NCBI GenBank assembly: GCA_054600435.1
Contig: BAAIJX010000015.1
Span: 248,001-312,000, forward strand
DNA: 64,000 nucleotides
Direction of reading: 5' to 3'
From: Neophaeotheca triangularis
Taxonomy: Eukaryota
This document shows positions 18,548 to 20,323 of the stretch, one piece after another (position 1 is the first letter of the stretch; each line of letters begins with the position of its first letter). The notes beneath the pieces are model-generated. The model saw only the letters and a list, made by a program, of their open reading frames with translations, had not been told where the DNA came from and did no database searches. The translations under genes and the position numbers were made by a program.

Positions 18548-20323
18548 ATGATGAGCAGCTCCACGGGCGACGACGGGAGACGGACGCCCGGTGGCGGTGT
18601 GTCCCAGAGAAAAAACAACGGCGATGTCGTGGCTGAGTTTGTCGGCAGCGAGGCCAGAGCCTTCGATCCGTCTGTAGAGCGTAGCATCGTGCGCAAGACG
18701 GATTTGTTGCTCGTGCCTTGGTTGTGGTTTGGCTATGGCTTGGTGTATTATGATAAAGCCATCTTGGGCGGAGGGTGAGTGGAGGAGCTTGAGATGTTGC
18801 CATCACGGCGGCTCTGTCTGGGAAGTGGCTAATTCTGACGTTTGCAGTGTGTTTTTTAAGTCTTTCTTCTTTTACTTTGTCCTAACTTTTATGGTGGAGG
18901 GGGGCAATTCCGTCCGACGGTTCCATGTATACTGACCTTGCCAACCCACAGCCAGCGTCTTCGGCATGATCGACAGCCTCGACTTGCGAGTCGTGGTCGA
19001 CGACACGGTAGACCCGCCCGTGACCTCGACGCAGCGCCTTTCCTGGGCGAGCTCCATCTTCTACTTCGGCATGCTGGGAGGCCTGATGCCCCTGACCTAC
19101 GCTTTCCAGCGCTTTCACCTCAGCCGCACCATCGGCACTTGCGTGGTTGTTTGGGGGCTCTGCGCCATGTCTACCGCTCTGGTAACTTCCCACCAAGGCC
19201 TCTACGTCCAGCGCTTCTTCCTCGGCTTTCTGGAATCCATGATGCCCACGGCGTTCATGGTCATCATCAGCTCCTTCTACACCCAGCGCGAGCAGACCTG
19301 GCGGCAATGTCTGTGGTACTCGGCCACTGGCGCCTGGACCATCATCGGCGCCGGTTTCAACTACGCTTTCGCGCGACTCAGCTCCGGCACTCTCGAGCGC
19401 TGGCAGTACCTATACATCATGGCGGGTTCCATGACAGTGCTCTACGGCATCGGATTCTTCTTCTTCCCGCAGACGCCCAACTCGGCCTTCTTCCTCCACG
19501 GCGAGGAGAAGACCGTAGCCCTCGAGCGCCTTCGCCAGGGCCACATGGGCGTGCGCTGCAACGTCATCAAGTGGAACCAAATCCGCGAAGCCCTCACCGA
19601 CCCCAAAGTCTACCTGATCAGCCTGATGATGGGCCTGGCTTACACCGTCAACGGCGCCGTGTCAGCCTTCGGACCCCTCATCGTGTCGACCTTCGGCTAC
19701 GACCCGCAGACCGCCCTGCTGTGGCAGATGCCGCTGGGAGCCGTGTGTCTGGTCATGACAGTCGGCTGCGGCTACATCAGCATCCTGTGCAAGAACGTGC
19801 GCCTCGTCATGATCGTGCTCAACAGTCTGCCCGTCATGGCCGGCTGCGCGATGATTTGGCGAGCGCCTTGGGACGAGGGTGGAGCCGTTCCCCTCGCCGG
19901 TTACACTATAATTGGTTTCTTCGCACCCGTCACCAGTCTCATTGTCAGCATGGGCATGGCCAACGTCACGGGGAACTCGAAAAAGTCGTTCATGGCGAGC
20001 TCGATCTTCGGTAAGCTGTCTTCCATCTGCCTTGCCCATGGTGGCGGCAACCTAACAGTCTTGCAGTCATGTATTGCGTAGGGAATATCGTGGGACCTTT
20101 TTGGGTACGCACAGAGCAGGTAGAGGATCAGTACCCACGGCTCTGGAAGGGTATCATCGGCTGCTACGCCGTGTTGGTCGCGATTGCCGTTCTGTTGTAC
20201 ATCATGCTAAAGAGGGAGAATGCGAAGCGCAATGCTCTGGAGCTGGACGAGAAGGAGGGCGAAAAGGTTGCATTTGATGATCTGACCGACAAGGAGAACA
20301 AATGGTTCCGATATGCGTATTAG
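18548..20323 (+). CDS. MFS transporter, allantoate/anion:cation symporter (Dal5-like) family
   Basis: VRKTDLLLVP, YYDKA, SIFYFG, QRFFLGFLES, WQYLYI, ANVTGNSKK and AFDDLTDKENKWFRYAY. Complex intron 18774-18951 and intron 20011-20066. Confidence 0.92.
18774..18951 (+). other. Predicted [D1,2] spliceosomal twin intron (stwintron)
   Basis: Internal intron 18775-18847 (GTGAGT..GCTAAT..TTTGCAG) splits the external donor G18774|TGTGT(18848-52). External branch ACTGAC at 18931, acceptor CAG ending 18951. The product DKAILGGASVFGM is in frame. Confidence 0.72.

Follow-up and report, generated by a model that had tools for sequence, protein, structure and literature searches.

Stwintrons, in which one intron is nested within another, have been known since 2013, and several hundred cases of the [D1,2] type are in print. 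In this type, the donor of an external intron is split after its first G by a complete internal intron. Published accounts describe 117 [D1,2] stwintrons in one Hypoxylon genome and 288 sequence-similar stwintrons in 14 Xylariales (PMC12403724), and for the Dothideomycetes they mention Helminthosporium solani and bioDA in Botryosphaeriales. The present text deals with a candidate from Neophaeotheca triangularis, a black yeast of the Dothideomycetes (order Neophaeothecales). The DNA analysed, referred to here as the window, is a stretch of 64,000 nucleotides (nt) from contig BAAIJX010000015.1 of assembly GCA_054600435.1 (positions 248,001 to 312,000). It contains an MFS transporter gene on the + strand, with three exons at 18548-20323, which is interrupted by 178 nt at 18774-18951. 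From its sequence, this interruption is probably a [D1,2] stwintron, located in phase 1 in an MFS gene labelled as of the ACS/Dal5 type.

Several described systems invite comparison. The unique [D1,2] stwintrons of Hypoxylon sp. CO27-5 (PMC9024468) show the same layout of a G, a donor, an internal intron, HAG, T plus four nucleotides and an external intron. They are also alike in size (e.g. 177 = 80 + 97 nt, against 178 = 73 + 105 nt here), several of them likewise reside in MFS genes, and excision in one step to the distal acceptor causes the same +1 shift. The two cases differ in that the Hypoxylon host belongs to the Sordariomycetes (Xylariales), its stwintrons were validated by RNA reads or reverse transcription PCR, and most of them are position-conserved across the family, whereas the present element comes from the Dothideomycetes, is proposed from its sequence and occupies a site where all relatives found lack an intron. 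According to the rows of Table S1 that were consulted, validated [D1,2] stwintrons are 173-220 nt long in total, of which the internal intron takes up 68-97 nt and the external one 97-123 nt (PMC9024468), and the size range quoted for published [D1,2] stwintrons is 114-313 nt; the present element falls within these sizes. A second comparison is offered by the [D1,2] stwintron in the DHA1 antiporter gene of Aspergillus nidulans, which also disrupts a donor within a conserved MFS peptide stretch and for which colinearity was used as well; its position recurs in many Pezizomycotina, and some species have plain introns displaced by 1 nt (PMC5587772). The present gene is labelled as ACS/Dal5 rather than DHA1, and its relatives lack any intron at the site.

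The 178-nt intervening sequence opens with G18774, which supplies the external intron's split donor with its first base and forms the 5' hybrid motif GGTGAGT together with the donor that follows. The internal intron (18775-18847, +) measures 73 nt, from GTGAGT at 18775-18780 to CAG at 18845-18847, and has two branch candidates, GCTAAT at 18828-18833, with a gap of 11 nt to the CAG, and TCTGAC at 18834-18839, with a gap of 5 nt. The rest of the external intron (18848-18951, +) comprises 104 nt, or 105 nt when G18774 is counted. It starts with TGTGT (18848-18852), which together with the 5' G gives the donor GTGTGT, and has the branch ACTGAC at 18931-18936, followed after 12 nt by CAG at 18949-18951; the AG at 18950-18951 is the first one past this branch. 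An alternative AG is present at 18954-18955 (+), and these two bases correspond in relatives to the start of a conserved Ser codon. The reading frame of exon 1 runs ...GAT AAA GCC ATC TTG GGC GGA G(GG) and that of exon 2 runs (G)CC AGC GTC TTC GGC. When 18773 is joined to 18952, so that 178 nt are removed, a GCC Ala codon is rebuilt in phase 1 and the peptide AILGGASVFG is obtained. The resulting coding sequence of 1542 nt has no internal stop and encodes 513 residues. The 5' hybrid motif, the internal intron, the 3' hybrid motif, the external intron and the restoration of the frame, which mark a [D1,2] stwintron at the sequence level, were thus all found. An earlier sequence-only reading had proposed this arrangement, namely a complete 73-nt intron between G18774 and TGTGT whose removal creates the GTGTGT donor of a 105-nt outer intron; the arrangement was found as it had been described, and every coordinate given there for donor, branches, acceptors, TGTGT and alternative AG proved correct. 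An [A2,3] stwintron was considered as well and is impossible, the bases before the final G (18949-18950) being CA.

The group that defined stwintrons has published a search model for the [D1,2] type, model A (PMC9024468, section 2.1). As given in that section, its first part requires G and one of 24 donors, 25-80 nt, DYTRAY, 4-20 nt and HAG, and its second part requires T and the four final bases of any such donor, 25-110 nt, DYTRAY, 4-20 nt and HAG. Internal introns were accepted here when DYTRAY lay 4-20 nt before HAG and the length was at least 42 nt. Model A matches at 18774, and GTGTGT is among its 24 donors. In the window as a whole it gave 2 matches, against 0.1 ± 0.32 expected from 200 first-order Markov simulations on both strands. 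The relaxed models B-D gave no extra candidate in the window, and model A had 0 matches in the 15 related loci (62,242 nt in total) that were retrieved in a metagenome scan. In a more pertinent control, the interior of the element was shuffled with both ends of the 178 nt kept fixed, and model A was still matched by 83 of 20000 sequences after dinucleotide shuffling and by 161 of 20000 after mononucleotide shuffling. The internal junction motif (branch, 4-20 nt, HAG, T and the four-base remainder of a donor) occurs 5 times in 128,000 window positions, so that 0.0028 occurrences are expected in the 72 positions allowed inside the element. Any reading as a plain intron therefore has to treat the nested signals as a coincidence of about 0.3-0.8%. 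A census of introns in the window by joining of open reading frames (ORFs) gave 48 candidates, with 21 of them at 47-72 nt and a noisy tail at 88-240 nt that includes artefacts; it is too crude to carry weight.

The peptide restored at the junction is strongly constrained in length. A YYDK...FG motif was found within the first 200 residues of 78 of the 120 best homologues of exon 2, the other 42 being N-terminally truncated ORF calls or having no match to the search pattern. In all 78 homologues, eight residues separate DK from FG, in variants such as AILGGASI, AILGGASV, AILGGAAV and AILGSAVL. The spacing of eight residues, which the sequence-only reading had given for this family, is thus real in every homologue that shows the motif. 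In an alignment of the motif with 25 homologues, the product of the stwintron model has no gap, whereas that of the public gene model has a gap of one residue right at the junction. The spliced 513-residue protein also aligned to its relatives by tblastn over the full length, from residues 1-19 onward.

The insertion region is spanned by 10 of the 15 related loci. In L001, L002, L003, L005 and L006, the coding sequence is uninterrupted at the site (GGT GGT GCC AGT ATC); the best tblastn segment of these five loci is 84-88% identical to exon 2, and over the full length they reach 76-81% identity. When the window was aligned with the same five loci by MAFFT, the result was a single gap of exactly 178 columns. 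L010 is uninterrupted at the site too, its own intron being located further upstream, while in L007, L008, L009 and L011 the YYDK codons are immediately followed by an intron, which lies 22 nt upstream of the site in the window. The latter intron is 47-48 nt long in L007-L009 and is a plain intron of 174 nt in L011 (2806-2979). An extra intron near residue 307 occurs in six loci (L005, L006 and L012-L015) and is absent from the window, L001 and L002; the intron content of the relatives of this gene varies widely. The neighbouring ORFs for a ZIP transporter and an esterase had no match in the 15 related loci, and the orthology of the metagenome loci is therefore argued only from the full-length identity and the shared second intron. 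As the site is empty in every homologue examined, the comparison argues for a gain of the element in this lineage; judged by these loci, it is lineage-specific and was acquired in the lineage of N. triangularis.

In Ascomycota, splice sites are paired by intron definition, and the first AG past the branch point is the one normally used. Each step of stwintron splicing would use the nearest legitimate partner. In the first step, the donor GTGAGT at 18775 would pair with the nearest branch, either GCTAAT or TCTGAC, and with the CAG ending at 18847, and the 73-nt internal intron would be excised. G18774 would then adjoin TGTGT and form the donor GTGTGT of the 105-nt external intron, which would in turn be removed by way of ACTGAC and the first AG after it (18951). 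By this route, 18773 would be joined to 18952, the GCC codon would be rebuilt and the product would be a 513-residue protein with the family-invariant YYDK-AILGGASV-FGM.

The alternative that survives best is a single canonical intron of 181 nt at 18775-18955, giving 512 residues with AILGGGVFGM, in which case the nested signals would be coincidental. All GT-AG, GC-AG and AT-AC pairs around the site were enumerated, and 34 in-frame, stop-free excisions were found, with this intron as the best of them; none of the 34 yields AILGGASVFG. The sequence-only reading had already pointed out that removal of these 181 nt keeps the frame and leaves the product one residue short (AILGGGVFG), and this was borne out. 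The public NCBI protein GAB7361693.1 (MBLNU230_g1740t1, here P0241), of 512 residues, is a letter-for-letter translation of this model. It has the start, the second intron, the stop and the donor at 18775 in common with the stwintron model, and differs from it in the acceptor (18955), in the length (512 against 513 residues) and in the sequence GG-G-VFG in place of GG-AS-VFG. To accept the 181-nt intron, one would have to accept a product that is one residue short in a motif of invariant length and has an alignment gap at the junction. The bases CCAG would become intronic, yet they are colinear with Ala and Ser codons of the relatives. On established knowledge of splicing, the donor would moreover have to bypass a well-placed branch and CAG only 73 nt away, and splicing would have to pass over the AG at 18951, the first one past the distal branch, in favour of one located 4 nt further on, with the internal signals left to chance at the rate given above. 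The genome announcement for the strains mentions DNA sequencing only and gives neither RNA data nor an annotation method (PMC13064199). The single 181-nt intron is for these reasons considered unlikely.

A number of observations nevertheless weigh against the [D1,2] stwintron and should be taken together. The model with the 181-nt intron is in frame, free of stops and public, and plain introns of about that length do occur in the family, as the 174-nt intron of L011 demonstrates. The search model gave one false positive in the same window: its second match (44174-44342, +) contains a plain intron of 88 nt (44175-44262, GTGAGC...TAG, phase 1) that joins two EF-hand exons of a gene with EF-hand and mitochondrial-carrier parts, and the pattern starting at 44174 runs on into a coding exon. 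The comparison of intron position and phase in orthologues, which the sequence-only reading had proposed as a check, was carried out and gave no position-conserved confirmation, since none of the 10 loci covering the site has a counterpart intron there and no orthologue outside the species carries the insertion. In the literature, a stwintron at the same position in orthologues is a supporting rather than a defining trait, and species-specific positions have been described (PMC12403724); an empty position in every relative found is the pattern described for recently integrated stwintrons. The symmetry between the element and its own reverse complement did not exceed that of shuffled sequences (391 of 500 scored at least as high), whereas symmetry and near-terminal inverted repeats have been reported for stwintrons of the Xylariales. 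The predicted folding energy was -42.4 kcal/mol (z +1.88); of 200 shuffled sequences, 197 formed folds of equal or greater stability, and there is thus no sign of an unusual RNA structure. Finally, while the anatomy, the 178-nt gap, the spacing in homologues and the reality of the extra G could be demonstrated, the order and outcome of splicing are what we infer from them.

Use of the outermost sites (18775-18951) as the main route, with a frameshifted mRNA and a gene that is non-functional or decaying, is a second alternative. As the sequence-only reading had stated, this excision removes 177 nt and causes a frameshift; G18774 is kept in the mRNA and the frame is shifted by +1. The excision is canonical, and it is described as an occasional event or by-product for stwintrons of Hypoxylaceae and Xylariaceae in published work. 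In exon 2, the +1 frame has no stop for 384 codons (ORF 18860-20014, +). Because this frame is open throughout exon 2, a transcript misspliced from 18775 to 18951 would meet no early stop that could mark it. As a main route, this excision is opposed by the intactness of all three exons, by the preservation of the ORF architecture in at least two other genotypes, with 0-2 amino acid changes per ORF, by the full-length alignment of the protein to its relatives and by the presence of the proximal 73-nt intron, which is a better-sized partner for the donor. A decaying gene is accordingly judged very improbable, and occasional excision of 18775-18951 is expected here as a by-product of stwintron splicing, by analogy with the published cases.

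The two remaining alternatives fare worse. In the first, one surplus G in the GGG run is an assembly error and the intron is a plain one of 177 nt; one G fewer would indeed give a canonical phase-1 intron and the conserved product. The P0001 cluster contains, beside the NCBI model, two exon-1 ORFs of 75 residues, P0244 and P0242, which come from other assemblies. Each of them starts at the second Met and closes with ...YYDKAILGGG-stop, as expected from GGA GGG TGA; if one G were missing, the ORF would instead extend through intron sequence along the reading frame of ORF 18678-18935. P0244 has 0 mismatches to the window in 75 residues and P0242 has 1 in 75. On the same 2700-nt contig as P0244 lie P0001 (2 mismatches to the window in 371 residues) and P0243 (2 in 84). 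The mismatches of P0001, P0243 and P0242 indicate that other genotypes, and not copies of the window, are represented, and all three ORFs of the gene are intact in them. The extra base in these assemblies is read at the protein level from the ends of the exon-1 ORFs, which in both argue against an assembly error, and on this evidence the extra G is genuine. Long ORFs of the window are uninterrupted (e.g. 1919, 845 and 818 codons), which argues for a low indel error rate, and the announced genomes of the species were produced from Illumina 2x150 reads, assembled with SPAdes or MaSuRCA and polished with Pilon (PMC13064199). This reading, too, has to put the nested signals down to a coincidence of 0.3-0.8%, and an assembly error is hardly credible. 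The same holds for two introns, 18775-18847 and 18851-18955, around a micro-exon TGT (18848-18850), which would be in frame and would leave eight residues between DK and FG (AILGGGVVFG, as worked out from the sequence), since its second donor GTTTTT has no G at position 5 and is outside the 24 donors of model A, GVV would replace the conserved A-S/A/T-V/I, and an exon of 3 nt is implausible.

The [D1,2] stwintron thus has the support of the match to model A, the 178-nt gap, the enumeration of one-step excisions and the extra G in two other assemblies, and the interpretation put forward by the sequence-only reading is upheld to that extent.

As to the kind of stwintron, no similar copies were found by blastn against the 64-kb window and the 15 related loci, where only chance matches of 10-17 nt were obtained. 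The similarity between the internal and the external intron did not exceed that of shuffles, and a search of the intron against Rfam for structured RNA or snoRNA gave 0 matches at E<=1. The sister stwintrons of the Xylariales (NTIRE-10) are also of the [D1,2] type and also occur at a new, species- or lineage-specific intron position (PMC12403724), but they have similar copies and terminal repeats, whereas the present element has no copy in the window or the 15 loci and no significant stem or fold. The introner-like elements of Fulvia fulva and other Dothideomycetes are likewise newly gained, long insertions (PMC4457414), and the present element is, as they are, close to a position that holds a regular intron in other fungi, here at a distance of 22 nt. 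They differ from it in forming multi-copy families and in being excised as one intron (PMC4457414). The hypothesis of a repeat or introner was rejected, since neither the window nor the 15 loci contain a further copy and no single canonical excision gives the conserved product. The element resembles the uniquely occurring stwintrons, rather than either the repeated sister stwintrons with near-terminal inverted repeats or introner-like elements.

The host gene itself is well delimited. Exon 1 (18548-18773, +) begins with the ATG, encodes MMSSS...YYDKAILGG and closes with the G of GCC, an Ala codon split between the exons; under the single-intron reading it ends at 18774 instead of 18773. Its translation is identical to the N-terminus of the NCBI model P0241. 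Exon 2 (18952-20010, +) opens with the CC of the Ala codon, continues with AGC GTC TTC GGC (ASVFG...), in colinearity with GCC AGT ATC TTC GGC of the relatives, and encodes an MFS_1 domain (Pfam PF07690, E=3.5e-22). It is followed by an ordinary second intron (20011-20066, +) of 56 nt (GTAAGC...TTGCAG, phase 1), which is used in P0241 and at which the tblastn alignments of L001, L004, L005 and L012 break at the same place (about residue 434-435). Exon 3 (20067-20323, +) ends in ...WFRYAY and the stop. The best NCBIfam match is TIGR00893 '2A0114' (E=2e-34, 119 bits), which is far under the 395-bit cut-off of this bacterial subfamily. S. cerevisiae Dal5 is a member of the ACS family, 2.A.1.14. 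Homologues at 55-64% identity carry the source names 'MFS transporter, ACS family' and 'allantoate permease', so that the designation as a Dal5-type/ACS MFS transporter is a reasonable label that rests on the annotation of homologues.

The transporter protein is 83% identical to a protein from Cladosporium sp. and 77% identical to one from Cyphellophora (Eurotiomycetes), and only 55-58% identical to those of many other Dothideomycetes. The Mre11 protein encoded in the window (28522-30459) is 100% identical to an NCBI protein of N. triangularis but has only 54-63% identity to named Dothideomycete proteins, Cladosporium included. The transporter may belong to a patchily distributed group of paralogues, or may have moved between lineages. 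Upstream of it, a gene for a ZIP-type transporter (17316-17507, +) has an apparent very short exon at about 17424-17453 (...LFIVIVFH), flanked by two introns, of which the second putative one (17454-17507, GTAGGT...CACTGAC...GTAG) was read by eye. This reading was guided by the ZIP motif HQFFEG. Other long ORFs of the window have Pfam matches to Pex2/Pex12, an HRXXH peptidase, a xanthine/uracil permease, a CTNNBL-like protein, Mre11, a DEAH-box helicase, Het-C, a leucine-rich-repeat protein of 1919 codons and UPF3.

With respect to novelty, the terms allantoate, MFS and 'major facilitator' are absent from the main text of the two principal accounts (PMC9024468 and PMC12403724), and Table S1 of the first has 0 entries for 'allantoate' and 16 for 'major facilitator'. 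The sequence-only reading had held that the instance appears new. This stands as far as no allantoate entry occurs in the text and Table S1 of PMC9024468 or in the text of PMC12403724, but [D1,2] stwintrons in other MFS genes have already been published; the class is known, and the instance appears to be new within the literature searched.

The finding has consequences for the annotation of the gene and for the study of intron gain. The public protein model is probably wrong by one residue, within an invariant motif that adjoins the first transmembrane helix. Nested introns are beyond what gene predictors can model, so that other genes are likely to contain silent errors of this kind. It is also conceivable, though rather doubtful, that a whole [D1,2] stwintron was recently integrated at a brand-new position in this black-yeast Dothideomycete. 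If this were true, the unexplained duplication route of [D1,2] stwintrons, which has been documented in the form of families only in the Xylariales, would also operate in a distant class, and sister copies would be present elsewhere in the N. triangularis genome. In all relatives found the site is unoccupied, the nearest homologues are without an intron and at least three genotypes carry the element, which together make this locus a clean test case for intron gain; it bears on the gain of stwintrons and of new introns outside the Xylariales, the group in which nearly all examples have been described.

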